DNA of 45,089 bases, from IMG/VR virus record IMGVR_UViG_3300027858_000001, positions 1 through 45,089 of that record; one strand, written 5' to 3'. Below are positions 1 through 45,089 of the stretch, in pieces. The notes under the pieces were generated by a model that saw nothing but the letters and a program-made list of their open reading frames with translations, was not told the origin of the DNA and ran no database searches. Numbering within the stretch: position 1 is the stretch's first letter; every line of letters begins with the position of its first letter. The position numbers were made by a program, and so were the translations under genes. Source of the stretch: a virus.

Positions 1-99
1 CACCGATTCTACGTTTTTATTGCCAAGGAAACTGACACCATCAATATCCTTCTTGTTCTCGGCAACTTCATCGATGTCCTTCTTCAACGCGGTGACCCG
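1..99. repeat. Terminal direct repeat, copy 1 (identical to 44991-45089)
   Basis: Bases 1-99 (caccgattctacg...gcggtgacccg) recur exactly as the last 99 bases of the window. The repeat lies inside a coding ORF. Confidence 0.95.
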
Positions 100-783: not shown

Positions 784-1782
784 TTAGGTTACGCGCGCCT
801 CAGTGTTGAGCAGTGAGTCGCTTTCCCGGATTGGAATGCCACGGTAGGTCAGAACTTCCTGCCCTTGGATCTCCATTGGTTTAAGGCGAATGAAGCTATC
901 ACTGGCGCCGGCATTGGTGGACAACGCATCAAGCGCTTCCATCACGTCGCGGTTACAGTAGATAGACAAGCTACCACCGGGGATACGACGGCTCTGCAGT
1001 TTCCAGTACGCTTTACGCATGAAATCAAACAATGCCACCGAACCGGCCTGCATGTCCGACACATCAACATTAGCAACGCGTGATACATACCGCCAATCTT
1101 TCACAGCCAGACCAACATGCCAGGTGAACTTCTCTTCCTTACCGTAGTAAGCGTTACTGGAACTATCGAGCAACCGCTGACGGCCCATGTCTTCCCGTTG
1201 AACACCAGCTTGAGTGCCTTTAGGGTAGAGCAGTTGAGTCTGATTATCGCCCCAACCCACGAACCAGATCGACGCGTTATCTGAGCCAGTACCACCGGCA
1301 TCGATGATCTGATTACCATTGGCAGCACTGAGATCGTCGAATCGTGGTGCTAGTCCCATAAACTCTTCAGGGTCTGAGGCAGTGTTACCGTAGAAGATCT
1401 TACTTGAGACCTCCTGATTCATCGCTTCCAGATACGCCATCGCCTCTGATAGACGCACAGCGCCCTCATTGGTGGACAGGTCCAGGATACGCTCATCGAT
1501 GGTGCTGAGCCCTTCCACAAACCCGGTGGTATCTTCGACCTGAGATTGACGGCCCTTGTCGTTCGGGATACCCTGGTACAGCTTGCCCCATGTCACGGCG
1601 GGCAGGCCAGCTCGCACGGTATGAAGGTGGGTAGTGCCTTTATTACACTCCACCGCGATAGCATCATCGAGGACAGGATTCATCTCTTTCAGGATCTCAA
1701 TGATCTGAACGAACTGACCCTTACCATCTTGCTGCTTGTATAAGTCGATCAAGTCGACATAGCTTGCGCCTAAAGTAGCCAT
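784..1782 (-). CDS. Major capsid protein (332 aa, presumed HK97 fold)
   Basis: Position after the portal and scaffold genes. Size and N-terminus (MATLGASYVDLIDLYKQQ...) are typical of podovirus capsid proteins. AGAGG RBS. Confidence 0.75.
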   Translation of the reverse strand: MATLGASYVDLIDLYKQQDGKGQFVQIIEILKEMNPVLDDAIAVECNKGTTHLHTVRAGLPAVTWGKLYQGIPNDKGRQSQVEDTTGFVEGLSTIDERILDLSTNEGAVRLSEAMAYLEAMNQEVSSKIFYGNTASDPEEFMGLAPRFDDLSAANGNQIIDAGGTGSDNASIWFVGWGDNQTQLLYPKGTQAGVQREDMGRQRLLDSSSNAYYGKEEKFTWHVGLAVKDWRYVSRVANVDVSDMQAGSVALFDFMRKAYWKLQSRRIPGGSLSIYCNRDVMEALDALSTNAGASDSFIRLKPMEIQGQEVLTYRGIPIRESDSLLNTEARVT

Positions 1783-1799
1783 TCATTTAGCCTCTAAAA

Positions 1800-2441
1800 T
1801 TATGCGGTTTTCGCCGCTGGGTAGAGAATAGACACTCGATCCGCAGGAGTGTTGCCGGGGGCATTAGTGCCTTCACCGGGTACATCCTCGCGGGTCAACT
1901 TGCCTACCCTGAACATAAACCGAATCATCTCAGGGTGGTTACCCACACCGTGATCAGTCAGCAATTGCTTCAGCTCTGGTGTCCCGAACTTGTCCACAGC
2001 AGTTCGAGCGATGGCGACGTTCTCATCGAACTTGTCACCACCGATCTCATTGTCGCTTCGAGAGTCGGTCTGCCATTGCGTCATCATCTGGTTAAACGCT
2101 TCTACTTGATTCTCAGCACCTGTCTTATTCTGTGCCGCCTGGAAGTCAACCAACTTCTGCGCCTGATCTTGCGTCAATCCCAGCTCTTTAAAGATGGGAC
2201 TGACCAAATCGATCATCGCCGTGTCTGGCTCTACCCCTTCAGGCATAGCAAAATCAGCATAGGTGTCTGGAGCACCAGCGTCACCAGTTCCTTCACTCGT
2301 AAGAGTAGTTTCACCCTCACCAGTTCCTTCACTCGTAAGAGTAGTTTCACCCTCACCAGTTCCTTCAACGACAGGAGTGTTCACCTGTTCGTTAGGTAAT
2401 TCTTCACCCTCAGCGGGTGCAACTGCTACATCGTTATCCAT
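1800..2441 (-). CDS. Scaffolding protein (213 aa)
   Basis: Lies between the portal and capsid genes. Acidic, repeat-containing N-terminus and helical C-terminus. GGAGA RBS. The start overlaps the upstream stop. Confidence 0.6.
   Translation of the reverse strand: MDNDVAVAPAEGEELPNEQVNTPVVEGTGEGETTLTSEGTGEGETTLTSEGTGDAGAPDTYADFAMPEGVEPDTAMIDLVSPIFKELGLTQDQAQKLVDFQAAQNKTGAENQVEAFNQMMTQWQTDSRSDNEIGGDKFDENVAIARTAVDKFGTPELKQLLTDHGVGNHPEMIRFMFRVGKLTREDVPGEGTNAPGNTPADRVSILYPAAKTA
2281..2367. repeat. 36-bp perfect tandem repeat (about 2.4 copies) inside the scaffold gene
   Basis: Units 2284-2319 and 2320-2355 are identical (ccagttccttcactcgtaagagtagtttcaccctca), with a partial third copy at 2356-2367. 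They encode GTGEGETTLTSE repeats. Confidence 0.95.
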
Positions 2442-2688
2442 TGTAATTCTCCGTGATCATTTTCAGGTAGTCTCCTGGTGATGCCTCTTTCAGTTCTAAC
2501 TCAAGCCATAGGCCGTGGCTTCTCTTGCCAGCGTTGTATGAGTGCATATTGGCGTCGGCAGTAAAAGTATTATAAAACAATCTAGTATGAGTCAGACAGT
2601 GCCAGACAAAATCCCTGCCACCGCGCGTGCTCAACTGCTGTTTCATCATTAACAGTTGTGAAGCTCTATCTACGGTTACCTCGCTCAT
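2434..2688 (-). CDS. Small head-module protein (84 aa)
   Basis: ATGA overlap with the portal stop, and its own stop overlaps the scaffold start. Possibly Bbp19-like, from memory only. Confidence 0.5.
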   Translation of the reverse strand: MSEVTVDRASQLLMMKQQLSTRGGRDFVWHCLTHTRLFYNTFTADANMHSYNAGKRSHGLWLELELKEASPGDYLKMITENYNG

Positions 2689-4361
2689 GCTAACCCCGCG
2701 TTACGCATCATCGCAGTGAGTCCGTTCTCGCCTTGCGTGTTTATCTCCGAAGCATCCTTTGCGGTAGCTGCCATCTGCTGGTTTTCCTCAGCTGCCTGAG
2801 CTTGTGCCGCTGCCTGAGCTTCCTGTTGCTGGATCTGTTGGACCTCTTCATCACCGCGTACCACTTTAGGATCGACTCCCAGAGCATCAGCGAAATCATC
2901 GACCGCTTGTAGTGCGTCAATTTTATGGCGCGCATCCGGCCATATCTGTGCGACCTGACCAGCGAACCCGGTGAGTCTCTCCAGATTACCGGTAGCAACC
3001 AAACGCTGCGCTTGTGCCAATACCGACACGTATTCAACATCCATATCAGTGCCCTGCAGCGCTTCAGGTGGTTCAGGTAACACCCCGTTCTTCTCAAGAA
3101 TGTTATACGTACGGTCGATCAACCCATCCAGTAACTCGGTGTGTAACCGCTCAAGCACCGGACCAAGCATCAACAACTTCTCTTCGTGTTTCTCTGCGAC
3201 CTCTCGTGCTGTGATCTGACGACGATCACTGTTCGACAACATCAAGAACAGATCCTCGTAGAACGCCTTGCTGATGCGCCCCTCCGCGTCACGGATCTCC
3301 TCCTTGATAACGCCGATCTCAGGTCGGTAGTTACCGTAGATAGAGGATAGGGTTGCACCAGGGTCATCGGTCCAGACGATATCCCCTGCTCTGGCCTGAG
3401 CACCCCCCATCTTGGTCTTGAGTGATGAAGGTCCTTGTAGTGGAGGTGACACCAGCTTATCGATCGCCTGGTACTTCCGCTTCTCCGCCAGTTGCAACGC
3501 CTTAACATCTCCCAGCGCAATCATGCCGGGGCAATCCGTGGCATAGATATCTTCTGCTGTCACATCCCACCGTGGGGATAGTATGGGGAAGTCATCAAAC
3601 CCGGACTCACGCAAGAACCCGCTATCGCCATTCTTCTTGGCCTGCCTGCTGTTCTCGTAGTAGACCGACCTGAACCGCTTGTCCTTCGCTAGTGGACTGA
3701 TCTGGTCTCGATCATCGTTAGGTTCGACACCATGAACCACAGTCACCCATGCCTCGGTGTTGCCTGACTCCCACATGTGCTGTACTGCGGTACTGCAGTT
3801 GTCAATCCCGAACTGCTTTACACACTGAGCCACTGTGATGTCGTACTCACGATAAAACGAATCGATCTGATTCTTGCCATCAGCGGCCAACACATACCCG
3901 CCAACAGTATATGGTCGGCACCAGATAACGTTCTCGAAATCCTCGAACACACCCATCGAAGCGGTGCCGAATACCCCTAACTCACCGTATAGCGTGTGCA
4001 GGGAGTTGTATGTATTCGATGAGCTGAACACCTTGTACATGATCATCTGCACCTGATGCAGCCATTTTTTGACTGCTGTGTTCTCATCGAGATCGCTATC
4101 ACCGGATGACAACCTGAACCATGGTCGAGCTGGTGACGTGATCCCGGCCATCATCCCCGACGCCAAGGTACGCACCGCCAACCGGCTAGTGTTATTGATC
4201 TGCTTGGTGTTGCGCTGATGGCCTTTGTTGCGGTCCGATGTTAAGAACCGTCCACGATGCGCCAGATGATAATCGGATAACTCCTGGTACACGGGAATAA
4301 ACGATGAGCGTTCACTCTCCATCGCTTTAAATCGTTTCCGGTAACTAGATATATTAGCCAT
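2685..4361 (-). CDS. Portal (head-to-tail connector) protein, T7 gp8-like (558 aa)
   Basis: The N-terminus (RKRFKAMESERSSFIPVYQELSDYHLAHRGRF...ITSPARPWFRL) resembles the podovirus connector family. Gln/Ala-rich C-terminal tail. Position upstream of the scaffold and capsid genes. Confidence 0.85.
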   Translation of the reverse strand: MANISSYRKRFKAMESERSSFIPVYQELSDYHLAHRGRFLTSDRNKGHQRNTKQINNTSRLAVRTLASGMMAGITSPARPWFRLSSGDSDLDENTAVKKWLHQVQMIMYKVFSSSNTYNSLHTLYGELGVFGTASMGVFEDFENVIWCRPYTVGGYVLAADGKNQIDSFYREYDITVAQCVKQFGIDNCSTAVQHMWESGNTEAWVTVVHGVEPNDDRDQISPLAKDKRFRSVYYENSRQAKKNGDSGFLRESGFDDFPILSPRWDVTAEDIYATDCPGMIALGDVKALQLAEKRKYQAIDKLVSPPLQGPSSLKTKMGGAQARAGDIVWTDDPGATLSSIYGNYRPEIGVIKEEIRDAEGRISKAFYEDLFLMLSNSDRRQITAREVAEKHEEKLLMLGPVLERLHTELLDGLIDRTYNILEKNGVLPEPPEALQGTDMDVEYVSVLAQAQRLVATGNLERLTGFAGQVAQIWPDARHKIDALQAVDDFADALGVDPKVVRGDEEVQQIQQQEAQAAAQAQAAEENQQMAATAKDASEINTQGENGLTAMMRNAGLA

Positions 4362-5905: not shown

Positions 5906-6321
5906 GTATCCGCTCCCGTTACCGTCGTCTCGAACGCCACTTCAAATCGTAAATTGAGCAATCGCAGCTCATCGATGACCGCTAGTTGGTCGATCCACAA
6001 CCGAGACAGCTGTGAATTCATTGCTGCAGCAAACTCTTCAATCGTGTCAATCGGGTTATCCGTACTGGCACCAAACTCAGTTACCGATAGGGATGCTGTG
6101 TCAGTCATCGCCAGCACCCAAACGTTCACATCCAACGACGGCACATGAAATATCGGGTCACTTCCGTTGAGGATGTGAAACGCTGTGTTAGATAGCGCAG
6201 GCTTAGTATCGTTGAACACGATACGCACACTATCACGATGCGCCTGCAACAGCAGCGGGTTCAGATCCACGTTGACCCTCACATACTGGGTCACATCTAG
6301 CACCGCGCTACCCGTGGACAC
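5902..6321 (-). CDS. Hypothetical protein with a beta-rich N-terminus and helical C-terminus (139 aa)
   Basis: GTG start overlaps the upstream TAG by 1 nt. Part of the coupled chain between terL and the portal gene. Confidence 0.5.
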   Translation of the reverse strand: MSTGSAVLDVTQYVRVNVDLNPLLLQAHRDSVRIVFNDTKPALSNTAFHILNGSDPIFHVPSLDVNVWVLAMTDTASLSVTEFGASTDNPIDTIEEFAAAMNSQLSRLWIDQLAVIDELRLLNLRFEVAFETTVTGADT

Positions 6322-6536
6322 TATTCGCCCAGAAGGTTTTTCGTGGCGGTTGCACCAGCGTTAGTCACACCACGCGAGCTGGTCAGGATAGTGCTGCGCT
6401 CGCTACCACCGGATGCCGCACGCTTGCGCTTCCTGTCTAAATCGCCGCCGCCCTGCCCTGCTGCCTCATCCGGCAGCCTGGGAGCCTCTGGTGGAGGTGG
6501 AGGCGGCTTAGGTGCTTTCTTTTTACTACCACACAT
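6321..6536 (-). CDS. Small basic Pro-rich protein (71 aa, MCGSKKKAPKPPPPPPEAP...)
   Basis: Strong RBS (AAGAGGGTGA) upstream of the ATG. Predicted to be disordered. No signal peptide despite the Cys at position 2. Confidence 0.5.
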   Translation of the reverse strand: MCGSKKKAPKPPPPPPEAPRLPDEAAGQGGGDLDRKRKRAASGGSERSTILTSSRGVTNAGATATKNLLGE

Positions 6537-6563
6537 ATGATCACCCTCTTACGTATAAATGCG

Positions 6564-9149
6564 TTATTGTAACAGATCCATCGCATCCAACGGGTTATAG
6601 TCCTTTTCACTGATATCTCTGTTACCAGGTATCGCATCCAGATGTCCTCGCTGCACCTCCAGTTTAGGCACCTCATACGCGAACGTTAATGCTAACGCGT
6701 CATACCAGTCGGGTGACTTGCCAATGCGTTTCTTGACCATATCCTTTGGCTCAATCTTCAACCGCGTGCGCTTGTCGAACAGATAATCCCTGTTGATTAG
6801 CTCTCTCTCCAGCATCTCATCATCCACGAGAGCGCCGCCATTGAGGATCCATGTTCTGAATCGAAACGCCATTTCAGATGCTTTATCTGCGAACTTCTTC
6901 TCATCGTCCGCCTTCCACCCGAATCCCACATCAACGCAGTGATATCCCAGCTGCCTCAGCCGATCCCCAATGGGACCGCCCATCGCCCCCACGTCGAGGA
7001 ACGTTACATTGGGTTTGTGCCGGTCCAGCAGCATCGTAATCTTGGCCACCACGTTCATCGAGTCACGAGAGGTCTCACCGCTGATGCGATACGTCTGGTC
7101 AGACTTAGCATCATGGCCACGCCTGAAAACGATCATACAGTCGTCATCACCGCCACGCGCAAGGTCAACCCCACATACCAGTGGGTCATCGCCTAGATAG
7201 TGTCCTGGACCCCTCTCCATCGCTTCCTTGATGGCATCGCCTGGTATGTACTGCATCTCCGACGCACTGGGGAACTGACCACGTACACGTACCTTGAAGA
7301 AATCAGAATCTTCACCGTAGTCCTCGGCCCATTCCTGAATCAAGTTCTTGTTGGTCATCTTGCATGTACGGCTGTCTATCTGGCGAGTGACCCACCGGTT
7401 GCTGTTGCGGTAGAACGCATCATGGAACTCGCCACTCTTTCGAGTAGGGTTACCGAAGAGGAAATGCATTGGCTCCCCATCAGTCTGGCCACCACGCGCC
7501 ACCTCGTAGATGACATCCGGCACAGCCGATGCCTCATCGAACAGGAACCACGGCGTAGACTCTGCTGCGTGCAAGCCTGCAAATGCCTCTGAGTTCTCTT
7601 CTCTACACGTTTGAGCATCCACCCGCCACTCCGCAGGCAGTCCCTTGTGAGCCAGGCTGGTAGCGGTCCACTCGAACCAGTGGCCAGTGATGCATCGGCG
7701 ATGCCATTTTGCCAGCTCAGACCACGTTTTAGTTTTCAGCTGCTCCCCGGTGTTCGCGGTGACCACACCCTTCGACCGGGGTCGTGTGCTCATGATGAAT
7801 AGTGCGATCCACGAGCTTAGGGCGCTGTTATGAGTGACGATGAAGTCGTTAGCCAGATACAGATGATCGGCTGCTGCCACCTCAATGCACATGCCGTATT
7901 TCATACCGATTGGCTCAATGGAGTCTATCCACCGCTTAGTATAGCGCGACTCTACCTTGTCGCCGAGCATCTTCCGCTTATATGTATGGGTGAAGGGGTT
8001 CCATGTGCCGCCAAAGTTGATGGTACAGCGGTGACAATCTTTCATGGGTTCAGATCGCACACCGTCCTTAACGTAGAACGTTTTCTTCGGTGTAGGGCAC
8101 ATCATCGCCTTGCCACCGAGCGAGCGCACCATCCAGATCAAATCCTCTACCAGGTGCTTGGAGGTGCTGCTATAACCGATGCTACCGGCTTTAGTGACCT
8201 CACCATCAGTGTCGAGCATACCGGCCACCAGATCACGTCTCACAGCCTCTGAGTTGTATTTGTACACATCCGCAATGAACTTGGTGTCACAGGTGACAGG
8301 AGCCATGCCGCAGTCCTTGAGCGCGGTATACAGGCCGGGGAGGGTGGCGCTTGCGAACCCCGTCTCCAAAAAAAGGTTAGTTTCCGTGTTGGGGTGGTAT
8401 TTCATTCTCCCCCATATCTCAGGCCGTGATGAACCGATGACACCTGATATGCTTGATCCATCCCCCAACCACACACCAACACGATACGCATCGTAATGCA
8501 TGCCGTTGTACGCAAACTGCACTGGGTCGCATGTGGGAATCTCCCATTGCCGCGCCATCGCTTTACCATTGGGACGCTTGACCCCCGCCTCCAATAGCTC
8601 CTGCGTCTCCATGACGCGCCACTTGTCGATGCCCTTACGCCGTTCCTGTCGGCCCTTGACTGCCCACTCATGCTCACCGGCGACATCGGTGGAACTGCCG
8701 TCATCGAATGTCACCTTGTAGAACTGCTTCCTGCATCCGCGAGTTCCGGTGATTCGCGTGGGTGTCCCATCCTTACCGAACACATAATCTCCGACCTTCA
8801 AATCGCCCCATTTAATATCTTCCATACCTATCGCCTCTTGGTTGTTTGAGGCGGAAACTATTACACGTTTTGCGTCTTGACACAACCTTTCTGCTTTCCC
8901 GGTGCCATGTCCTGAAGCAGTGGCAAATCGGATAGGTACCGTAGGAGTAAAGCCGTCGAACCCCCTGTCCCGGATCTCATGTCCCCACTCAATCAGGAAC
9001 TCTTTTTGCCATTCATCGGGTCCTGCCTGCCCTGACAGCTCGTCCACGCCCCAATCGAAGGCGAACATGACCCAACCATAGGGGTCACCGTAGAAGTCCC
9101 CCATAGCGTCCAGCAGAGAGATCTCAACCCCGAGCGCATCGGTAGTCAT
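6564..9149 (-). CDS. terL: Terminase large subunit, interrupted by an intein (861-aa precursor, 505-aa extein)
   Basis: ATGA coupling to terS. Walker A GHGTGK|S is restored after removing aa 86-441. Walker B-like FLFDEAS. The C-terminal nuclease-type region contains VCGVDLARGGDD. Confidence 0.85.
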   Translation of the reverse strand: MTTDALGVEISLLDAMGDFYGDPYGWVMFAFDWGVDELSGQAGPDEWQKEFLIEWGHEIRDRGFDGFTPTVPIRFATASGHGTGKAERLCQDAKRVIVSASNNQEAIGMEDIKWGDLKVGDYVFGKDGTPTRITGTRGCRKQFYKVTFDDGSSTDVAGEHEWAVKGRQERRKGIDKWRVMETQELLEAGVKRPNGKAMARQWEIPTCDPVQFAYNGMHYDAYRVGVWLGDGSSISGVIGSSRPEIWGRMKYHPNTETNLFLETGFASATLPGLYTALKDCGMAPVTCDTKFIADVYKYNSEAVRRDLVAGMLDTDGEVTKAGSIGYSSTSKHLVEDLIWMVRSLGGKAMMCPTPKKTFYVKDGVRSEPMKDCHRCTINFGGTWNPFTHTYKRKMLGDKVESRYTKRWIDSIEPIGMKYGMCIEVAAADHLYLANDFIVTHNSALSSWIALFIMSTRPRSKGVVTANTGEQLKTKTWSELAKWHRRCITGHWFEWTATSLAHKGLPAEWRVDAQTCREENSEAFAGLHAAESTPWFLFDEASAVPDVIYEVARGGQTDGEPMHFLFGNPTRKSGEFHDAFYRNSNRWVTRQIDSRTCKMTNKNLIQEWAEDYGEDSDFFKVRVRGQFPSASEMQYIPGDAIKEAMERGPGHYLGDDPLVCGVDLARGGDDDCMIVFRRGHDAKSDQTYRISGETSRDSMNVVAKITMLLDRHKPNVTFLDVGAMGGPIGDRLRQLGYHCVDVGFGWKADDEKKFADKASEMAFRFRTWILNGGALVDDEMLERELINRDYLFDKRTRLKIEPKDMVKKRIGKSPDWYDALALTFAYEVPKLEVQRGHLDAIPGNRDISEKDYNPLDAMDLLQ
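7827..8894 (-). mobile_element. Class 3 (WCT) intein with a LAGLIDADG homing-endonuclease domain in the TerL P-loop (356 aa)
   Basis: Boundaries are GTGK|AERL... and ...FIVTHN|S. Block B is GEHEW, block F is YGMCIEV and block G is VTHN. LAGLIDADG motifs are VGVWLGDGSS and LVAGMLDTDGEV. Codon positions were checked against the DNA. Confidence 0.8.
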
Positions 9150-9598
9150 AGAAACGACACCTCATCATCGTCACCGGGTGAGGACAGCCTGGCTCGACCG
9201 CGTTGTATCCGCGCTGCCGCATCATCGGGGGTCAGCATGTTGACATCGTGTTTAGCTGATGCCAGTCCATCAACCAGCTTGTGCTTGTTCATCTCCGACA
9301 GAACGCGTGTGCTGACTCCCAGGTCACCCGCCTGTCGAGCCAGTAGGTGGTTGTCGGCCAGTTCAAGCAGTATCCACTCAGCGTCGATGTCAGAGCTTGC
9401 CAGACGACGCAGCAGGATCTTCTCGATCGCTTCCTTAACATTGTCTCGCTCCAACAGCCGTATCGCAATGGCATTACCGAATCCAACTCGCTCGGCAGCT
9501 CTACCGGGGTTGAAGTCCTTGGTGTACTCAATGACGAACGAGAGTTCTCTGTCATTCATCGCGGGCAATCCGTCAACCTTTATTTTTCGCATAGTCAT
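9146..9598 (-). CDS. terS: Terminase small subunit (Terminase_2-like, about 150 aa)
   Basis: The DRELSFVIEYTKDFNPGRAAERVGFGN block matches the small-terminase HTH region. Lies directly upstream of terL with an ATGA overlap. The start was placed at ATG 9598 because the longer ORF (to 9796) runs through non-coding tandem repeats. Confidence 0.7.
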   Translation of the reverse strand: MTMRKIKVDGLPAMNDRELSFVIEYTKDFNPGRAAERVGFGNAIAIRLLERDNVKEAIEKILLRRLASSDIDAEWILLELADNHLLARQAGDLGVSTRVLSEMNKHKLVDGLASAKHDVNMLTPDDAAARIQRGRARLSSPGDDDEVSFL

Positions 9599-9679
9599 CA
9601 ACCGAAATGAAAAACAGTGTACCACGGCCCTTTTTACCGGGTTGAAAACACCCCCTATTTGACCGGTTGGGAAGAGACT

Positions 9680-9724
9680 GTGTTCATTCATGTTGTGTTC
9701 ATTCATGTTGTGTTTATCCGTGTT
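9680..9724. repeat. Three tandem 15-mers (GTGTTCATTCATGTT x2 plus the degenerate GTGTTTATCCGTGTT) upstream of terS
   Basis: Read directly from the sequence: 9680-9694, 9695-9709, 9710-9724. Confidence 0.9.
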
Positions 9725-9943
9725 TCCTTGGCGGTTTTTGCGTTTTCCGATTACATTCAAGGTTTTTTTCACTAGTGCGAAAAACTCCCGAACCAATTTT
9801 TCAGACCCCTAAATCCACGCGAATCTTCTAATAGGTATACTGGTATTGGGTTACAGAGGTTTTTTCGGCAAAACGTCACAAATAAACACAGTGCCTCTAA
9901 GTCAAGCCCAGTAAGGGTTAGAGTGAGTTATCCACAATTTTGA

Positions 9944-10034
9944 AAACCACCAAGGACACAGTACGAAGCATTTTTTTTTCGCTCCTAAGTCGTTGATCTA
10001 CGGTAACATTCAGAAACTGTGTCCTTGGTGGTTT
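9944..10034. promoter_or_regulatory. 19-bp perfect inverted repeat with a 53-nt spacer in the divergent control region
   Basis: aaaccaccaaggacacagt (9944-9962) is the exact reverse complement of actgtgtccttggtggttt (10016-10034). The spacer contains a T9 run. Confidence 0.85.
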
Positions 10035-22035: not shown

Positions 22036-22338
22036 ATGGGTGTCCGAGAGAATAAAGTGGAGACGTACCTGACCGATGAGGTCAGGAAACTGGGAGGCGA
22101 TACCCGTAAGTGGGTGTGCCCTGACCACAGCGGTGTGCCCGATAGAATTGTGGGGGTACCGGGGATCTCCCCTGTATTCGTTGAAGTGAAGACCGTGGAC
22201 GGCCAGTTACTACCAAGCCAGATACGAGAACTCCCACGACTCAGAGATGGTATGGGCCTTGAGGTGGTCACGGTATACGGACACTATCAAGTTGATCTCC
22301 TGATCATAGAACTAAAGGAACGATTAAATAATGCTTAA
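22036..22338 (+). CDS. VRR-NUC domain nuclease (100 aa)
   Basis: The SGVPDRIVG...VFVEVKTVDGQLLPSQ block matches the VRR-NUC catalytic core. Confidence 0.75.
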   Translation: MGVRENKVETYLTDEVRKLGGDTRKWVCPDHSGVPDRIVGVPGISPVFVEVKTVDGQLLPSQIRELPRLRDGMGLEVVTVYGHYQVDLLIIELKERLNNA

Positions 22339-24817
22339 CCCTGGCGACCTGTACGACTACCAAAAAGAGGCGGTGCTCCACCAGCTGTACAACCCTGAGA
22401 CAATGCTCTGGTTGCAAATGGGCCTGGGCAAAGAGCAACCGAACTCCGAACCATTGCTGACCCCCGACGGGTGGCGACCCCTCGGTGACATCGTACCCGG
22501 TGATAGTGTCATCGGTGCTAACGGTGAGCCGACCGAAGTGCTGAGAGTGTACCCGCAAGGGGATAAAGAAGTGGTCACTATTACCTTCGGTGACGGCACG
22601 TTCGCCCGGTGCGGGTGGGACCATCTATGGAACGTTAAGACGAACCACGATGTGATGTCAGGGAAACCGTGGAGGGTGATGACTACACGCGCAATCGTTG
22701 ATTCAGGGTTGGACCAAGGTAGTAACAGTAAATACCTGATACCAATCTGTAAGCCGGTGACCTACTCCCATCGCGACCTACCGGTGGATCCTTACTTACT
22801 GGGGGTCATCCTTGGCGACGGCACCGTATCAGAGGCGAGCGGCATAGTCATCTGCACCGATACCGAAATCGTGACTAAATGTGGAGCGTCATCTATCAAG
22901 CTGCATGAGACCTCTGCATATACCAGCTATGGGTACATCTCCCAAATCAAACAGCACATGCGTGATCTTAATTTGATGGGTAAGCGTAGCTGGGAAAAGC
23001 ATTTACCGGGAGAATACCTGCGAGCATCAATCAACCAACGGTTGTCGGTGTTACAGGGGTTACTAGACACCGACGGATCCCCCATGAAATCGGGAGGAGT
23101 GGAGTTCTGTTCCACCAGTGAGGATCTTGCGGACGCGGTGGTTGACCTGACCCAATCGCTCGGAGGGATCGCTCGCAAATCAGGTCCCAGGGTTACCCGT
23201 CATCAGGGTGGGCTAGGGCACCCGTCGTTCAGGGTTAATGTCAAACTGCCGCTAGATTTCATCCCGTTCACCTTAGCTCGAAAATTGGTACGATGGGTCC
23301 GCCCTACGAAGTACCAACCACATCGCCGCATACGGTCTATCAAGGTGACCGGCCACGAAGCGTCCACCTGCATCAGTGTTGCTGCTCCTGATAATTTATA
23401 CCTGACCCGTAACCATGTGGTCACTCACAATACCCCGATCACCCTGACAACCATTGTGGACCGTATGCGCGCCGGTCAAGTACAAAAGACCTTGGTGTTC
23501 GGTCCATTGAGAGTTATCCACGCAGTGTGGGAGAGAGAAGCCCGTAAGTGGGATCACACCCGGCACCTACGATTCAGTGTGGTCCACGGCAATAAAGCTA
23601 AACGACACCGTGCGCTGTTCCTGGACGCAGACGTATACCTGACCAACTATGAGAACATGAATTGGATCGCAGAATATTTAGACCACTATTACACCCAGCA
23701 AAACAAGCCGTTACCGTTCCAAATGGTTGTCTACGATGAAGTCTCTAAACTCAAGAACGCCACATCGTTGAGAATGAAAGGGGGCAACCGCGACCGTAAA
23801 AACAAACGCGGAGAATACACCCCGGTGAAGTACACCGGTTGGAGAAAGATCATACCTCACATCCCATACCGCACGGGGTTAACTGGCACCCCCGCAAGCA
23901 ATGGTTATCTGGATCTTCACGGGCAATACCTCGCGGTGGATAACGGTGATCGTTTAGGGACCGGGATCACTCGGTTCAAAGATTTGTATTTTGAGTCTGA
24001 CTATAACGGGTGGACTTATACTCCCACTGAAACCGGTCGTGCGATGATCGAACAGCGTATCCATGACATCACAATTAAAATGGATACCAAGGACTATTTG
24101 ACGCTACCGCCTACTACTTATACCAACATGATGGTGGATCTGCCGCCGAAAGCACGCAAGGCATACGATCAGATTGAAGCGGACATGTTCACCCAGCTGG
24201 ACTCAGGCAACGCGATCGAGCTGTTTACTAAAAACACTATCTCGAATAAATGCCTGCAATTCTGCAACGGCGGTGTTTACCTTGTCGCGGGAGAGTCCGA
24301 GTGGGAAGCAGTTCACGACGCCAAGCTGGAAGCGCTGGACGAAGTGATCGAGGAGGCAGCCGGTCAGCCGGTGCTATGCGGTTACTCGTTTAAATCAGAC
24401 GCTGCCAGGATCATGGCCAGATATAAGCGGATGCACCCGGTTAACTTAACCGCCATGCCAGCGAGTAAGACTCCAGGAATCATCGATAAGTGGAACCGGG
24501 GCGAGATTAAACTCCTGATCGGCCACCCTGCTTCTATCGGCCACGGTGTCGATGGTCTGCAGGATAGCGGGAGCATCCTTGCATGGTTTGGTCTACCGTG
24601 GTCATTAGAGCATTACCTGCAGATGAACCAACGACTAGACCGCAACGGACAGAAACATCCGGTATCAGTCATCAGGATACTCTGTAACAATACAGTCGAC
24701 CTGGCGGTAGCGGATGCACTGGAACGCAAGGCAGATGATGAGGATGGACTCAAGTCCGCACTAGAACGCTACCGTAAAGGGATCACCACCAATGACCTTG
24801 AGGTCAACTTTTATTAA
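22331..24817 (+). CDS. SNF2/DEAD-like helicase, interrupted by an intein (828-aa precursor, 495-aa extein)
   Basis: DYQKEAV. Walker A MGLGK|T is restored after removing aa 35-367. Also YDEVSKLKN (DExx box) and C-terminal QMNQRLDRNGQ (motif VI-like). Confidence 0.85.
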   Translation: MLNPGDLYDYQKEAVLHQLYNPETMLWLQMGLGKEQPNSEPLLTPDGWRPLGDIVPGDSVIGANGEPTEVLRVYPQGDKEVVTITFGDGTFARCGWDHLWNVKTNHDVMSGKPWRVMTTRAIVDSGLDQGSNSKYLIPICKPVTYSHRDLPVDPYLLGVILGDGTVSEASGIVICTDTEIVTKCGASSIKLHETSAYTSYGYISQIKQHMRDLNLMGKRSWEKHLPGEYLRASINQRLSVLQGLLDTDGSPMKSGGVEFCSTSEDLADAVVDLTQSLGGIARKSGPRVTRHQGGLGHPSFRVNVKLPLDFIPFTLARKLVRWVRPTKYQPHRRIRSIKVTGHEASTCISVAAPDNLYLTRNHVVTHNTPITLTTIVDRMRAGQVQKTLVFGPLRVIHAVWEREARKWDHTRHLRFSVVHGNKAKRHRALFLDADVYLTNYENMNWIAEYLDHYYTQQNKPLPFQMVVYDEVSKLKNATSLRMKGGNRDRKNKRGEYTPVKYTGWRKIIPHIPYRTGLTGTPASNGYLDLHGQYLAVDNGDRLGTGITRFKDLYFESDYNGWTYTPTETGRAMIEQRIHDITIKMDTKDYLTLPPTTYTNMMVDLPPKARKAYDQIEADMFTQLDSGNAIELFTKNTISNKCLQFCNGGVYLVAGESEWEAVHDAKLEALDEVIEEAAGQPVLCGYSFKSDAARIMARYKRMHPVNLTAMPASKTPGIIDKWNRGEIKLLIGHPASIGHGVDGLQDSGSILAWFGLPWSLEHYLQMNQRLDRNGQKHPVSVIRILCNNTVDLAVADALERKADDEDGLKSALERYRKGITTNDLEVNFY
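22433..23431 (+). mobile_element. Class 3 (WCT) intein with a LAGLIDADG domain in the SNF2 helicase P-loop (333 aa)
   Basis: Boundaries are GLGK|EQPN... and ...HVVTHN|T. Block B is WDHLW, block F is STCISV and block G is VTHN. LAGLIDADG motifs are LLGVILGDGTV and VLQGLLDTDGSP. Codon positions were checked against the DNA. Confidence 0.8.
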
Positions 24818-25059
24818 TAGTTGCGTACCGGCGACAGGCGCATTGTGGCGGTGCCGGTTAGCTGCACCCTGATGGGCATCATCGATAAAACCATAGTGCC
24901 GTCACTGTCTGCAGAAAAAGTGCCCTCAATCATGTCCTGGAAGTTGCCATCACCGTCGCCTATCTCCATGGTAATGGTGCCGGTGCCGACATTGGCGCGG
25001 TATTGGTACTCACCGGATTTAGGGGTTATCGCCACGTTATGCTGCATGTTTAAGTTCAT
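24814..25059 (-). CDS. Small beta-rich protein, last gene of the late arm (81 aa)
   Basis: ATGA overlap with the upstream gene. Its stop overlaps the SNF2 stop on the opposite strand. Confidence 0.5.
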   Translation of the reverse strand: MNLNMQHNVAITPKSGEYQYRANVGTGTITMEIGDGDGNFQDMIEGTFSADSDGTMVLSMMPIRVQLTGTATMRLSPVRNY

Positions 25060-26177
25060 CGTATAGTCCTTGGCGTTAGTGATCCTGACATAATAGTGCC
25101 CGGTATTATACTACTTGTGTCTGTTATTGGTATGGCAAACGCAGCAGGATCAACTAAATTAGCCTGCTCTGCTTCTATATATTCTTGGGGCAAGACAAAT
25201 TTTCCGCCCCTAACTTCCCCCATTCGACCTTCGTATCTTCTATACGAATCATTATTATAGTAAGCACCAATCCTAAAAGCAGCGTCTCCTACAATTCCGG
25301 TCGTGTTGTTGAGCGTCACGTCTGATACTTCTACAACGCCATGAACATAACTACGCACGTAAGGAGCAGCCCTGTCCCATACTGCGTGCATTAGCGTCGT
25401 CTCACCAGCTGTAACGCCTGACCCAGCCAGCTCATCGGCGGTGACTGTTTCTAAGACTTTAAAACGGCCATTTGATTGAAACTGAACATAATTCTGAGAC
25501 GTTCCACTATCCCAATTCCCAAACAGAGCGGTGTTTGACGAAACAACATCGGCATTCTGCAGGCACGACATAGTAACGTCGGCCAAATCCAAAGCGCTTA
25601 TTGACCCTGAGATTGTCAACGCATGTAGCAACGATGAGAACTCAAGCCAGCTTGCCCCGTAAGGGTGCCCCGCAGTTGTTCCAGAGATTGAAGTCCCTGT
25701 GGTAAGGCTGGCATTGTAACCGTTCCCTGTAACGTCCTCGAATTCGCCCGCAGTACCATTACCGCTTGCCTCTGTTAGTGGGAGAACGAACTCCCAGTCT
25801 TGGTAGACTTCGTTATAACCGAAGGCCGCCCCCGGCGCTGGTTGTGTCTCCCCTGCCATGTTGTACCAGATATAGAACTCATTATCGGAAACGTCGCTTA
25901 GCGTAGGCAGATATACCTTTATCTCGCAATCCCGCAATGCTTCTATGGGATTAGTTACGAACCGTCTAACATGGCAAGCAAGTCTTGTGGCCCCTAAATC
26001 ATCAGACGAAAATCTTATATCTCCGCCACCATTTAACGCCGAGTGACTACTGCCGTTAGCGACCTCGTTTAAAAGGTTGTCGAGCGTTATTGTCACGACA
26101 AACCCTGTCAAGGCAGCGTTTATCTTGCTGCTAGGGATGGTGATTTTATGGCTTCGCCAGCCAACGGGGAACGCCAT
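25056..26177 (-). CDS. Putative receptor-binding or tail-appendage protein, DUF2341-like N-terminus plus LamG/ConA-like lectin domain (373 aa)
   Basis: The N-terminus (WRSHKITIPSSKINAALTGFVVTITL...GGDIRFSS...YIWYN) resembles DUF2341. The C-terminal half resembles LamG-type domains. Late-arm position. Confidence 0.45.
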   Translation of the reverse strand: MAFPVGWRSHKITIPSSKINAALTGFVVTITLDNLLNEVANGSSHSALNGGGDIRFSSDDLGATRLACHVRRFVTNPIEALRDCEIKVYLPTLSDVSDNEFYIWYNMAGETQPAPGAAFGYNEVYQDWEFVLPLTEASGNGTAGEFEDVTGNGYNASLTTGTSISGTTAGHPYGASWLEFSSLLHALTISGSISALDLADVTMSCLQNADVVSSNTALFGNWDSGTSQNYVQFQSNGRFKVLETVTADELAGSGVTAGETTLMHAVWDRAAPYVRSYVHGVVEVSDVTLNNTTGIVGDAAFRIGAYYNNDSYRRYEGRMGEVRGGKFVLPQEYIEAEQANLVDPAAFAIPITDTSSIIPGTIMSGSLTPRTIR

Positions 26178-28125: not shown

Positions 28126-30966
28126 TTATAAAAATTCTAATACTTCAATGTCAGCGCTACCCAACGTGAAGTCTATTGAAGATGTGGTGGAAAAACTTAT
28201 ACCAAAAATTTGAGCTACCCCCTGTGGCCTGACTTCTCGGATCATTGTCGGCGGAGCATGAGCATACCCGGTAGTGAGTACCTGAGTTGACTCCACATTT
28301 ATTGAGTTAATCCTCACATTAAACGTGACCGTGGTGGTGCCGAACGCTCCTGTACCCCTGATGTAATACTTAACCACCAACCGCGAGCTATCACTCTTCG
28401 GGTAGAAATTAGCAAAGTCATCGGTTAAGGATGTTGCTGCTGCCGCCGATCCTCGTCGATACAAGCGATGTTGTATTATTGACTCCCCCTGCTCGTTTTC
28501 ATACTTGAGCTGCTGACCCGCGACGTACCCAGCATGACTCGCGTAGAGCGCCAGCGCTGCTGTCCTGAAAGCGGTCTGGGAGGAGTTAGTCTGTGCTGGC
28601 CTTAGTGACGCAACACCACTATCACGAAAGCCTAACCACGCGTAGTCCGCTACTGCGTCGACCCATGGGAAAACTTTTTGCATCTGGTCCAATACTCTCC
28701 ACCAGGGGGCAGGGTAGTCGTTCTGGTACCCATCACTAGTAGCCCATGCCCCTGAAAGAATTGCTGTCCCACTGAACGCGGTACCATCTGCAATCGAGAT
28801 TTCGCCGGTATACGTGGTGTCAATCGTGACCACCGTGGTCGACGTGAACCCTGTTATCTTCGCCCGTCCACCATCCCAATCGGTTAAGAAACGACCGACA
28901 TCGCCTGCGACGAATGCTGCCCCCGCTGCAGTAGCGGTAACTGCAGCGCCACTGGTTGCAGATAAAGTCAGCGTTACCGCGTGAGTTTCCCCCATCTGCC
29001 ATGACTCGACGTTAGCCCATAGCCGGATCTGCCTGGTGGATGTGATTGATATAGCGTTGGCGATATCGATAGCCCCTCGCCAGATTGTGAAATGAGCATC
29101 GAGTTGCGACCGGGTTAGCGCGGGCACCCATGTATATCGTGCGTTGATCAGGTCGTTTCCGGGGCCAACACTATCCTGAGCACTGAATATATCGCACCCG
29201 GAGTCGATCAGACGTTGTGCGAATGTGCTCGTGGCCGCCAGATCAGCCGGACTGGGAGGTCCTATCATTATTGGCTTTCCATAGGACCGGAGCGAAAGAT
29301 CCGTGCCACTCACGAGAGTGACGTTCCCTGTGTATTGATTACTGAACTCAAACTCACCCGGTTCGTGTGAAATGTAAAACCCGTGAAATGAGTCGTAGTT
29401 GTTGAACTGAGCTATCAGGTCTGCCGCAACTTCGCGAGTACGATCTTGAGCGTTCGTCAATCGAGTCGTGAGAGTCAGACCATATCTCACTGGATCAGCC
29501 CCGCCTGCCGGGTTACCTGTGACTCCATCCCAGTATGAAAGCAAATCGCCCGTGAGAGCTGTGTCGCCATTCCTACCGAGGCCGAGGTATACGTGCATGT
29601 CTTGCTTTTCACACTCGCTCAAGATCACTTCGACCGGGTTGAAATTATCTACGTTCGGGTAGCCGGGTAGCAGTGTCTTCCAGAACGCACCCGTTTGGCT
29701 GGTGTCGTGGTCTGTAGGAAAACTGAACCCCGGTTGATAGAACCAGAATGATAGATACTCTACGTACGGTACGATTGCTGAGCGGATCCCCGCGCTCGCC
29801 ATCTCTCGGATCACCTCTCTTATGTATAGTTCGGTCATGTAGTTAGCAGCGCCATCCGACGACCGCTCGAAAACAGTGACATTTGGTGATAACCGTAACA
29901 GCTCTAACCACGCAGCCGTCGCATAATTTTTATAAGGGAATATGGTGTTATCGTTTTCCGCCATCTTCCTTTTCAGGGTCTGCTTGTCGTTACCCTCTAT
30001 AGGGGTAACAGCGATCTCAGATAAACTGCGAACCCTTACCCCACCATCTCCGGTTATGACTACCGTGCCCATCGTCTGGAACGTACCGGGCACCGGCGAA
30101 TCGACCAGGTAACTGCCTGGGGTAATGAGAGGACTCTCATAAAAAGCTGATGCAGCGAGGAAGGCGGTAGAGTCGTCGGTACCGTCTGCCAACGCCCCAA
30201 ACTGCTTGACGTTAGCCTGACCCGTTACAAACAGCCCGACAAACTCTATCGAAGGTACCGCAGTGGATTTGATCACACTACCGTTATCATCAGTAGCAGC
30301 GGTCACTGCACGCGAGAAGTACACATTACCCCCATCGGTACCTTTGCCTGCGGTGTGTTCAATGCAGAACACCAGCTGATCCACCCCGATACTAGCATCC
30401 GCTTTCATCGCGGCCACCGTCACAACTTTTCTAATGAAGTCGGACTCCACGAAACTACCGGGTAAGATCGAGGAAGGGTCAATGTTTTCCAGCCCCGTGA
30501 GATCCCCCCTCCACCGTAGTATCTGCAGAGACTCAGGGTCAGGCAGTGTCAGTGGTAATGCTCCCGAATAGGAGTCGCCTACCGCTGCCGATCGTGAAAG
30601 TGAATCTCTTAATTGCTGTATCAAGAATGTGAGGTGATCCATCTGATCTTCATGCACATCAGGAAAGAATCCGCCCTGTGAGCTGAACGCGGTCAGCTGG
30701 TTCTCGATATAGTTCGACCGAATATACCACTCAGCGCCTGTAGGGAGCGGACCGGCGATCCTCAGTATGCTGCCTCCCCCGTCAACCCCAATACCCGAAA
30801 CGGTGTAATCGGTGTCCACCGCGAGCAGCGTCTCACCCCCGGCGACATCGGTCTCGTAGACCTTAACCTGACTTTTATCTTTAATCCTGAAAGTGTACGA
30901 GAAAGTGTCCGTAACGTTGTTACCGATGTACGGTCCTGATGTGATGTTAGTCGTGTTTACAGTCAT
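28126..30966 (-). CDS. Tail fibre or tailspike with a putative glycoside-hydrolase-like central domain (946 aa)
   Basis: The N-terminal module (YIGNNVTDTFSYTFRIKDKSQVKVYE...DYTV...FPDVHEDQMDHLTFLIQQL) is common in phage fibre N-termini. FHGFYISHEPGEFEF resembles TIM-barrel hydrolase-like domains. Lies after the internal virion genes. Confidence 0.65.
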   Translation of the reverse strand: MTVNTTNITSGPYIGNNVTDTFSYTFRIKDKSQVKVYETDVAGGETLLAVDTDYTVSGIGVDGGGSILRIAGPLPTGAEWYIRSNYIENQLTAFSSQGGFFPDVHEDQMDHLTFLIQQLRDSLSRSAAVGDSYSGALPLTLPDPESLQILRWRGDLTGLENIDPSSILPGSFVESDFIRKVVTVAAMKADASIGVDQLVFCIEHTAGKGTDGGNVYFSRAVTAATDDNGSVIKSTAVPSIEFVGLFVTGQANVKQFGALADGTDDSTAFLAASAFYESPLITPGSYLVDSPVPGTFQTMGTVVITGDGGVRVRSLSEIAVTPIEGNDKQTLKRKMAENDNTIFPYKNYATAAWLELLRLSPNVTVFERSSDGAANYMTELYIREVIREMASAGIRSAIVPYVEYLSFWFYQPGFSFPTDHDTSQTGAFWKTLLPGYPNVDNFNPVEVILSECEKQDMHVYLGLGRNGDTALTGDLLSYWDGVTGNPAGGADPVRYGLTLTTRLTNAQDRTREVAADLIAQFNNYDSFHGFYISHEPGEFEFSNQYTGNVTLVSGTDLSLRSYGKPIMIGPPSPADLAATSTFAQRLIDSGCDIFSAQDSVGPGNDLINARYTWVPALTRSQLDAHFTIWRGAIDIANAISITSTRQIRLWANVESWQMGETHAVTLTLSATSGAAVTATAAGAAFVAGDVGRFLTDWDGGRAKITGFTSTTVVTIDTTYTGEISIADGTAFSGTAILSGAWATSDGYQNDYPAPWWRVLDQMQKVFPWVDAVADYAWLGFRDSGVASLRPAQTNSSQTAFRTAALALYASHAGYVAGQQLKYENEQGESIIQHRLYRRGSAAAATSLTDDFANFYPKSDSSRLVVKYYIRGTGAFGTTTVTFNVRINSINVESTQVLTTGYAHAPPTMIREVRPQGVAQIFGISFSTTSSIDFTLGSADIEVLEFL

Positions 30967-30968
30967 GG

Positions 30969-33900
30969 TTATTTACGCTCTGGTCCGAATAGGAATGAGT
31001 GCATGCTGGCGTCTTCACCTTCCACGAGAACGTCGTACAAGTGCTCCCCCGTGGCCCATGCCTGATTAACACCGGGGACGCCTACAGCAGCCCCGACAAA
31101 TTTACTGGAACCCTTCACCTGCCCCTTCGTGATATCTTCATCGGTGAACCCTCGTTTAACCAGTTCAGGTATTGACATGGTGCCTTGCTCAAGAACAGCA
31201 GCCAATGGTGTCATATTGTAACCGAATTCCCCTACCGATGCTGACGCCACATCACGGATGAAGGGGATCGACTGTGCAGGGAATAACGCCGTGTTGGTCA
31301 ACATCCGTTGTAATCGATCATCATCATCTTCAGGTTCTCCGAGTTCACCACGCATCATCATCTCGAATAACACCGGTATGGTGAATAGAAACATCGCTTT
31401 AGATGCCACGTTGGTGGTTGAGTATCTCCCCGATTTAGCCCCTTTCACAAGGTCCCTCTCCATGTTCCATAACGAACTGAAAAAGGTCATAAACATCGTG
31501 AGCATCCGGCCAGTCTCTGCTTGACCGCGCATGATCCTCGCCATATTCATGGTCGAGCCGGACCCCTGAACATTCTCGATAACCCAGTCCGCGTGTTGAT
31601 ATGCGCGCTTCTGATCTCCGTGCTCGCTCATCGACTTGATATACGCCGCGTGCCATGTGGGTACATCCACCATGTAAGTCTGGATCAACATGATGTGCTT
31701 CATCGATGTTTCTTGTGCTGCCTTCAGAAACGGTAGATTGCCTACCGTATTGAACGCATCCTTAACTTTCCGACCGGTCTTAATGTCCGCCGAGCTGGTG
31801 ATATTCGCCATCGCGTTCTTTATCTCACGGTCCATCGTGGTCGTGCGGTGCTTCATCACTTTGGAGTTTTCCATCGCGAAATCCAGCGAGTCTTTCATAC
31901 TGGCGGGACTCTTCAAGATACTACGCAATGCCTGGTAGACGGGCCCTATCCCCAGCTCAGCGATGGAGTTGGACAACCCTGATATCTGGATGATCCCCGT
32001 AGACGCCTTGAACCCCATCACACCAAGGGTGGTGCCGAAACGCAGTCGACCTAGTATATCGTCCCAGAACATTTTCACAGGCGCCTCACGGCCATCCTTG
32101 GCGATGTCATTGAGCCACGGCGACAGCTGTGCATACTCTTCTGGACCGAGCTTCGCACTGATGGCTTTAGCAACCCTGGAGTCATTGATCAGCTTATTAA
32201 CTTCACGAACGGTGTCGTGATGCGTGATGTAGTGAATGGTCTCCTGGAAGTGCGACGGCACCACATCCAGGCTCAACCGGATAGCATCATAAGCCCCTGT
32301 CCGCTCACTGGTAGCACTAGCAGTGACCGACGCCTGAATGCTACTGGTAGAACTGAACATTGATTCAGTTTGGGCATCCCGCCGATCTTCATTGAGCTTA
32401 GCTTTCTGTGATTGTTTGGGGTCATATTTGACCGGGTAGTACCCGCCGCGATACTCACCGAAAGGAGTGACCACCGGTACTGCTTCCACTTTCGGTGGAG
32501 CCAGTCCAGTGGTACGACGATGCACCTCTGCCAGTTGCGGGTACAGTTCGTCCATCTTGTCCCAAATTAGCTGCACCATATCCCAATCGCTTTTGGTCAT
32601 GTGCGCCAGGATCGCTTGTAACTGGGGATTATCGAGGGTAATCGACGCGTCCACATCGGGGTCAGCCCACTGTTCACCAAGTAACATCTTACGCAGGTTC
32701 CCCGTGTTACCAGTGTTCAGTGCCACTGCGAGCACCTGATGACCGAAGAGGTTATCCTCGATCTCAGGGATATACAGTTTCTGGTTGTGCCGTTTGATAT
32801 CTGCTTTACTGCGGTTCTGAATGGCGTTCATAACGTCTACGCCGGTCTGGTCCCACAACGCCTGTTCACTGTCATAGGCGTCAACGAACCCCTGAACCAA
32901 TATCTGATGGCTAATACCTGTGCGCTCTCCACCATCTAACCAGCTGGCCATGAAGGGGATCTTGGTCATCTGAGCCATCATCCAACGACCCCAGTGGGCA
33001 CCCTCAACAACAGTGGTACGACTGGTGCTGAACTTATCGTCAGACGCCTCATCCATGCTGTCCACCCAATTAGTGACCAGTTTGTCGAATGTGATCTGAT
33101 CCTCTAACCGGGTGATCTTGTTTGAATACCGTGCAACGTGTTCGATGTTCTTCAATGATTCGTCGACACCTTTCAGCGCTGCCGACGGCACCTCCTTCCA
33201 GTGGGTCACGTAAAGCTCATCGAGTACCTCGGGCGTGAGCACCAACCCTTCACCGTGAACCTCCATTCGGTCCTTGGCCCACATTGCGATGTTTTCGTTT
33301 TCCTTATCCACCGCCTTCAGGGTGGCGGATTTGCGGAATTCAAAGCGGTTCAGGATCTTGACGATCTGCCCCCAATGACCGCCGTCTGCTTTCATGATCT
33401 CTTCGCGAACAGATTTTTTAGAGTACCGAGCGACACGATCCACAATACCCTCGGTGGTTTCACGAGCTTTGGTCGCTTCCATCCCCAGGTAGTAATTCAC
33501 CACCTGGCGGCGTTTAGCTTCCATCGCCCCTTCCTTATTCCCCTCAGCGAGCATACGTGCAGACTCTTGAGCTGCGCGGATCTCCGCCTTGCGATACTTA
33601 CCGGGGTGAGTCTCACGGTACGACAGCTTGCCTATGCGCTCCTCTGCCACCGCCTTGATGGTAGCCCGATCAACCGTGGGGGTGCGTGACTGCCTAGCAA
33701 GTGCTTTCAGCTCTTTGAGTAGCAGCTTACCGCGTTCCTCGTTCATCACTGCAGCGTCTGCACGCGCTTCGAGGGTGCCATCGGTCATCACATCACCGTG
33801 ACGTTCCAGCATGATCTGCTGCGCCCGTGCGTCGGCTGCGTGTTCTATCTTCGGTGCGTTGATGAGTTCGCCCAACATCTCTGACCCGGAAGTGAACCCG

Positions 33901-40654: not shown

Positions 40655-40655
40655 A

Positions 40656-44990: not shown

Positions 44991-45089
44991 CACCGATTCT
45001 ACGTTTTTATTGCCAAGGAAACTGACACCATCAATATCCTTCTTGTTCTCGGCAACTTCATCGATGTCCTTCTTCAACGCGGTGACCCG
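44991..45089. repeat. Terminal direct repeat, copy 2 (identical to 1-99)
   Basis: Exact 99-bp identity with the first 99 bases. Confidence 0.95.

Follow-up and report, generated by a model that had tools for sequence, protein, structure and literature searches.

The 45,089-nucleotide (nt) DNA stretch IMGVR_UViG_3300027858_000001 from IMG/VR, analysed over its full length and referred to here as the window, encodes a phage large terminase subunit (TerL) whose ATP-binding loop (P-loop) is interrupted by a 356-residue insert. The insert, at nt 7827..8894 on the minus strand, is very probably a class 3 LAGLIDADG intein placed at the Walker A junction Lys85|Ser of the TerL of a ~45-kb marine tailed phage, able both to splice and to home. 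It occupies TerL residues 86-441 and consists of a Hint splicing domain and a LAGLIDADG homing endonuclease domain, as judged from homologue comparison, profiles and a structural model. Its anatomy, exact insertion point, conserved catalytic residues and fold are established here. An inspection of the letters alone, made without database searches (the sequence-only reading), had already proposed an insert with these limits, and translation of the 861-residue open reading frame (ORF) exactly reproduces both its coordinates and its junctions, ...ATASGHGTGK(85)|A(86)ERLCQD... on the N-terminal side and ...NDFIVTHN(441)|S(442)ALSSW on the C-terminal side. The same reading had predicted that excision would restore Walker A and leave a 505-residue terminase; the translation without residues 86-441 indeed has 505 residues and reads SGHGTGKS at Walker A.

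A search over 5.8 billion proteins returned an identical TerL precursor from a marine metagenome contig of 45,117 bp (SRR1699482, PRJNA266633), and the 120 best relatives were analysed. Among them, 47 are intein-free proteins of 499-547 residues that run through SGHGxGK-S uninterrupted, in 71 the same GK|S point is occupied by an insert of 316-358 residues, and two are N-terminally truncated. Because uninterrupted and interrupted relatives coexist in these numbers, the insert is a present/absent unit at one P-loop peptide bond, the invariant Lys|Ser. Alignment of the extein with the 47 intein-free homologues bears out the earlier claim of a split P-loop: the insert lies exactly between the Walker A Lys and Ser, these homologues read straight through GK-S, and the segment is not a retained domain in them. 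A later intein start at Cys90 (AERL|CQD...), which would mean a class 1 intein, was considered and ruled out, since the intein-free homologues read GK-S without extra residues; moreover, of the 15 relatives having the N-terminal extension, just 3 have that Cys. The sole peculiarity of the window's TerL intein is its N-terminal hairpin AERLCQDAKRVIVSASNNQEAIGMED, which stands before the conserved WGDL, is longer than in most relatives and is common to 14 of 70 of them.

The interrupted gene is that of a phage large terminase. The precursor ORF (6564..9149, minus strand) encodes 861 residues plus stop, made up of N-extein, intein and C-extein, and was identified from the ORF list, PHROGs, homologues and fold match; it has Walker A GHGTGKS after splicing, Walker B, an RNase H-like nuclease and an adjacent small terminase subunit (TerS) gene. 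The N-extein, residues 1-85 (8895..9149, minus strand, by translation and residue indexing), ends with the first part of Walker A (SGHGTGK, nt 8895..8915), in which G80, H81, G82, G84 and K85 are invariant in an 81-sequence alignment. By translation, the C-extein, residues 442-861 plus stop (6564..7826, minus strand), begins with the Ser442 that completes Walker A and holds the nuclease domain and the Walker B motif WFLFDEAS (7527..7550, minus strand), whose D538 and E539 are invariant in the same alignment. Directly upstream and overlapping the TerL start by 4 nt lies the TerS gene (9146..9796, minus strand; phrog_51, E = 1e-9), for which PF03592 Terminase_2 is recorded on the source contig. 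No Pfam terminase family is matched by the precursor or by the spliced 505-residue sequence; the spliced extein has zero Pfam matches of any kind, and a phmmer search of it against PDB sequences gave nothing meaningful. The identification as TerL is therefore based on PHROGs, annotated homologues and fold search. The C-extein matches phrog_2, terminase large subunit, at E = 2.8e-29. Against phage GenBank records, tblastn gives single-piece matches covering 93-98% of the spliced length, which include the annotated, intein-free terminases of Vibrio phages 1.021.A and PS25B.1 (59-61% identity), Pseudomonas phage terminases, and the TerL of epsilon15 and of epsilon15-like Salmonella, Klebsiella and E. 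coli phages (~40%). In an AlphaFold2 model of the precursor searched with Foldseek, the region outside the insert matches the Sf6 gp2, HK97, D6E and T4 gp17 terminases, and the modelled C-extein matches the TerL nuclease domains 8DKR and 5C10.

Class 3 signature and fold

The sequence-only reading had assigned the insert to class 3 from its Hint blocks, and the full signature is present: the Trp/Cys/Thr triplet, Ala1, the terminal His-Asn and Ser+1. Block B has the core GEHEW at residues 158-162 (8664..8678, minus strand), with His at B:10 (intein H75) and Trp at B:12 (intein W77). Block F starts with YGMCIEV at residues 418-424 (7878..7898, minus strand), where Cys F:4 (intein C336, TerL C421) is the predicted initiating nucleophile. 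Block G, FIVTHN at residues 436-441, together with Ser+1 (Ser442) covers 7824..7844 (minus strand) and supplies Thr G:5, the penultimate His and the C-terminal Asn. All three blocks had been named beforehand, and every one of their residues His75, Trp77, Cys336, Thr354, His355 and Asn356 (intein numbering) is found in all 71 homologous inserts. The pattern used for extracting the 71 inserts required [ST]-H-N at the C terminus followed by S, T or C, which to some extent predetermines those four positions; G:5 is nevertheless Thr in all 71, where the pattern allowed Ser or Thr.

The residues around the junctions are as the earlier reading described them. Residue 1 of the window's intein is Ala86, which offers no Cys, Ser or Thr nucleophile, and none of the 71 inserts has one there: the position is taken by A (36), G (20), L (10), Q, I, M or R. 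All 71 follow a Lys (-1), and 69 are followed by Ser and 2 by Thr (+1). This conserved pattern supports the assignment of residues 86-441 as a class 3 intein.

The nearest solved relatives are class 3 DnaB inteins. In a phmmer search of the insert against all PDB sequences, 6BS8 came first (E = 6.7e-6), followed by 6RIX and 6RIY. The alignment to 6BS8 pairs HEW with HQW, MCIEV with RCVEV and VTHN with PTHN, which bears out the block numbering. A profile of the family aligned the catalytic residues again (6RIX, E = 7e-15; 6BS8, E = 5.5e-14), with the block B core on the HQW and the block F Cys on the catalytic Cys of RCVEV in both 6BS8 and 6RIX. A hidden Markov model (HMM) of the 71 homologous inserts matches the window's TerL ORF at E = 1e-146.

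General profile libraries gave a divided result. The Hint and LAGLIDADG profiles proposed as a check at the outset stayed below their curated cut-offs in Pfam, where single-sequence scores were 17.7-19.3 bits for LAGLIDADG_3 (cut-off 22.5) and 16.2-17.9 bits for Hom_end (cut-off 21.1), and Hom_end_hint was likewise sub-threshold only; NCBIfam intein_Cterm scored exactly at its cut-off, 15.6 bits. Because the Pfam matches are sub-threshold, support comes instead from PHROGs, the PDB family profile and the fold, all of which are positive. Among PHROGs families, the insert was matched to terminases, primases and helicase loaders, in each case to their intein-bearing parts (E = 5e-23 to 3e-11). 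The AlphaFold2 model of the whole precursor, built from the 81-sequence alignment, has a mean predicted local distance difference test (pLDDT) of 89.3. Across the insert, 10-residue block means are mostly 85-98, with 79-83 at its C-terminal end; values below 50 occur only at the split Walker A residues 82-84 and in parts of the extreme C terminus (847-851, 858-861). Foldseek matches the model to PI-SceI (E = 9e-14, target TM-score ~0.6, about 440-470 aligned columns) and, for the insert region, also to the TliVMA and PhoVMA inteins and PI-PfuI. The model thus supports a PI-SceI-like fold, Hint plus LAGLIDADG.

Splicing, homing and age of the element

In the proposed mechanism, the gene would be translated as an 861-residue precursor with a split P-loop. 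Since its ATP-binding loop is split, this precursor should be inactive as a packaging ATPase. Intein Cys336 (F:4), aided by His75 and Trp77, would then attack the Lys85-Ala86 bond, and a thioester-branched intermediate would form. The N-extein would be transferred to the Ser+1 side chain, the C-terminal Asn356 would cyclise with help of His355 and release the intein, and an O-to-N acyl shift would yield the 505-residue TerL with an intact GHGTGKS loop. This route is modelled on the Bethlehem DnaB intein (PMC2807308), other class 3 inteins (PMC5222942) and M. smegmatis DnaBi1 (PMC6195587); it is from the first two of these sources that we infer splicing through the block F Cys and a branched thioester. 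Packaging in this phage may well depend on splicing, as Kelley et al. concluded for the terminases that they studied: having placed P-loop intein sites on a TerL pentamer, they saw splicing as a requirement for both assembly and catalysis (PMC5050341).

The free intein or the precursor is also predicted to act as a homing endonuclease. During co-infection, it would cleave TerL alleles without an intein where they code for Walker A, the expected target being the spliced junction GCTTCAGGACATGGCACCGGGAAA|AGCGCCCTAAGCTCGTGGATCGCA, and repair of the break from the intein-bearing allele would copy the element in. The earlier reading had noted two LAGLIDADG motifs and proposed an intact endonuclease. 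Both motifs were found, each with its acidic residue kept. Motif 1, VGVWLGDGSS (residues 224-233; 8451..8480, minus strand), has its catalytic Asp at intein D145; this position is Asp in 58/71 and Asn in 13/71 inserts, and the flanking Gly residues are invariant. Motif 2, LVAGMLDTDGEV (residues 307-318; 8196..8231, minus strand), with core VAGMLDTDG in the window's TerL intein, has its catalytic Asp at intein D230 (Asp in 70/71) and lies under the sub-threshold Pfam LAGLIDADG_3 and Hom_end matches. The endonuclease domain of PI-SceI is a hit of the family profile (E = 9e-12). The endonuclease of the window's TerL intein looks intact, and some family members, those with Asn at motif 1, have probably lost endonuclease activity.

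Evidence on mobility comes from the homologues. Over 70 of them, identity to the window's protein in the intein and in the extein is uncorrelated (r = 0.10), with relatives such as P0027 (62% in the intein versus 39% in the extein) and P0011 (68% versus 47%). The lack of correlation fits horizontal movement of the TerL intein. Mobility is thereby supported indirectly, by polymorphic presence or absence at one site and by the uncorrelated identities.

Several observations weigh against an element that splices and homes. Outside a subgroup of 15 members, the first ~26 intein residues (AERLCQDAKRVIVSASNNQEAIGMED) align poorly, and all Pfam Hint and LAGLIDADG matches of the precursor and the insert lie below curated cut-offs. 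The closest relative overall (P0002, 74% identity) is also intein-bearing, and the 5.8 billion-protein search gave no near-identical intein-free allele, the nearest intein-free homologue being ~64% identical; for these two reasons, recent homing is not demonstrated. Composition does not point to a recent arrival either. Overall GC content and GC at third codon positions (GC3) are equal in the intein (0.533 and 0.632) and the extein (0.549 and 0.630), which rules out composition as a sign of recent acquisition and suggests long residence.

There are possible alternative explanations for these data. One hypothesis is that the intein splices and its endonuclease is no longer active, leaving an immobile vertical passenger kept only since imprecise loss destroys the P-loop. 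The indistinguishable GC and GC3, the failure to find a close intein-free allele and the 13 relatives with Asn for the first catalytic Asp, which show that endonuclease decay occurs in the family, would all agree with this. We nevertheless regard it as unlikely, as the present copy has both catalytic Asp residues and the invariant Gly of both motifs, its endonuclease region is modelled with high confidence, and the related BAKA TerL intein cleaves DNA (PMC5050341); the uncorrelated intein and extein similarities are also hard to reconcile with vertical descent alone.

It could also be argued from Ala1, which is incapable of the standard first step, and from the sub-threshold Pfam matches that the insert is the relic of an intein no longer able to splice, or an intein of class 1/2 type that Ala1 has disabled, so that TerL would be a pseudogene in a defective phage. 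This is very improbable. Both the window's intein and all 71 relatives have the Trp/Cys/Thr triplet that stands in for the absent N-terminal nucleophile, along with the His-Asn and the Ser/Thr+1, whereas class 2 inteins are without the triplet (PMC2807308). The reading frame is open across 861 codons, no second terminase was seen among ten large ORFs scanned against PHROGs (the intein part of the helicase described below aside) in a scan that was not exhaustive, and the window, with its 99-bp terminal repeat, resembles a complete genome. As for an accessory domain that this terminase lineage would keep permanently and never excise, the presence of the segment in 71 of the best 120 homologues might suggest one, and we assign that idea next to no probability: the segment breaks up the Gly-Lys-Ser that is invariant in Walker A, homologues that are closely comparable are entirely without it and have no compensating sequence, its conserved residues are those of intein catalysis and not of terminase function, and its fold is Hint plus LAGLIDADG. 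A splicing and homing class 3 intein remains the explanation that we favour.

A second intein and genome context

A second class 3-type LAGLIDADG intein, of 333 residues, is located at 22433..23431 (plus strand) in the ORF of an SNF2-like DNA helicase (22331..24817), where it splits Walker A at GLGK|T. It has Glu1, DHLW, STCISV, VVTHN|T and two LAGLIDADG motifs, is 35% identical to the TerL intein, and scores above the cut-off for Pfam LAGLIDADG_3. The HMM of the TerL-intein family matches the helicase ORF at E = 2e-75, and no window ORF other than this and TerL is matched. Judged by these motifs, the phage carries a pair of related class 3 inteins, each in a P-loop. Nothing points to a recent intragenomic jump between the TerL and helicase sites: the spliced junctions share only 21/60 nt and the inteins are only 35% identical.

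The two inteins might together form a redox or thiol-metal checkpoint, in which oxidising conditions or thiol-binding metals in the host cell would hold replication and packaging as inactive precursors for as long as the conditions are unfavourable. This idea, which we consider a long shot, arises because both inteins would start splicing with a cysteine thiol. Conditional splicing under oxidising conditions or thiol-binding metals has been shown for the class 3 DnaBi1 of M. smegmatis (PMC6195587). Besides its block F Cys, the window's TerL intein contains seven Cys residues; it has no counterpart of the Cys that serves as disulfide partner in DnaBi1.

Some relatives carry two inteins within TerL itself. 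In P0003, P0004, P0011, P0013, P0019, P0063 and P0103, the Walker A class 3 intein is accompanied by a second, class 1 intein in Walker B at DEA|S, the equivalent of window nt ~7529/7530. This Walker B intein has Cys1, CHDDxTEV...WSGN|S and a penultimate Gly, and measures ~345-360 residues in most of the seven and ~160 residues in P0103.

Positions 1..99 and 44991..45089 of the window are an identical 99-bp direct repeat, indicating a circularly closed assembly or terminal redundancy, and the window is probably a complete phage genome of ~44,990 bp. A megablast search of window positions 6000..10000 against phage GenBank records found no near-identical DNA, and the phage therefore has no close cultured relative. 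A tRNA scan of the window found none. Within the structural and tail region, a 2663-residue ORF (30969..38960, minus strand) is flanked by a tail-fibre-like gene (28126..30966) and by a gene for a 617-residue protein with endolysin-like matches (38960..40813). A 373-residue ORF (25056..26177, minus strand) had no PHROGs match at E <= 1e-5.

Comparison with known inteins

Inteins of this type at such a site have been on record since 2009, and class 3 inteins in phage terminase P-loops were described by Tori et al. in 2010 (PMC2807308). Kelley et al. (2016) found that TerL P-loop inteins of mycobacteriophages splice, and that the BAKA gp6 intein both splices and cuts DNA site-specifically (PMC5050341). 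The window's TerL intein is a further case of this established phenomenon of class 3 inteins in phage TerL P-loops, and its discovery leaves knowledge of how inteins work unchanged. The mycobacteriophage TerL1-a and TerL1-b inteins (PMC5050341; BAKA gp6) are the same class 3-type LAGLIDADG elements in the TerL Walker A loop; at the corresponding positions BAKA reads HLW, RCIQV and IPTHN|S, with 31-36% identity to the window's intein. The carriers differ: the BAKA TerL is an actinobacteriophage terminase_1, whereas the window's is an epsilon15/Vibrio-podovirus-like TerL without a Pfam match, from a phage that is marine and probably infects Gammaproteobacteria.

By tblastn, the window's intein matches 556 phage records. 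The best are Salmonella viruses PAT1, 65FD and 66FD (36%), and others include BAKA and further cluster J phages (31%) as well as Aeromonas, crAss-like, Porphyromonas and Clostridium phages. The TerL intein of PAT1, 65FD and 66FD (Uetakevirus, epsilon15-like) is the closest cultured-phage counterpart and belongs to the same TerL lineage. In PAT1 (MT261384.1), TerL is encoded at 1195..3645 (locus L001) and is an 816-residue protein holding a 322-residue intein, ALRPDD...YIVTHN|S. The PAT1 site SGHGIGK|...IVTHN|S is the same as in the window, with Ala1, HLW and VCFEV; the two inteins share 36% identity by tblastn and 42% by global alignment, and that of PAT1 differs in its length and in being without the N-terminal extension. 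GenBank labels the PAT1 gene 'terminase large subunit' only and does not mention an intein, and no paper describing the TerL intein of PAT1, 65FD or 66FD was found.

Automated pipelines miss such inteins, as is evident from the plain terminase label of the PAT1 homologue and from the lack of an above-threshold Pfam match. For annotation, the product of the window's gene should be given as a 505-residue TerL plus a 356-residue intein, and not as an 861-residue terminase. The comparison extends class 3 P-loop ATPase inteins from actinobacteriophages to a large marine and enterobacterial group of epsilon15-like podoviruses. With at least 71 related inteins at one site, and with intein-free counterparts, the collection could serve studies of homing dynamics or mining for splicing tools.

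PI-SceI (the VMA1 intein), TliVMA and PI-PfuI have the same two-domain architecture of Hint plus LAGLIDADG, and differ in being class 1, with Cys1 and with Asp or another residue at F:4; their identity to the window's intein is 10-16%. The class 3 DnaB inteins, on whose member from mycobacteriophage Bethlehem the class was defined (PMC2807308) and solved for M. smegmatis DnaBi1 (6BS8) and M. chimaera DnaB1 (6RIX), share with it the non-nucleophilic residue 1, Trp B:12, Cys F:4, Thr G:5 and Ser/Thr at +1. Like the window's intein, they sit in the P-loop of an ATPase, immediately behind the Walker A Lys, although their host is DnaB and not TerL. The DnaB inteins with solved structures are mini-inteins that have no endonuclease, whereas the intein in the window has a full LAGLIDADG domain, together with a longer N-terminal hairpin that places ~12 more residues before the conserved WGDL.

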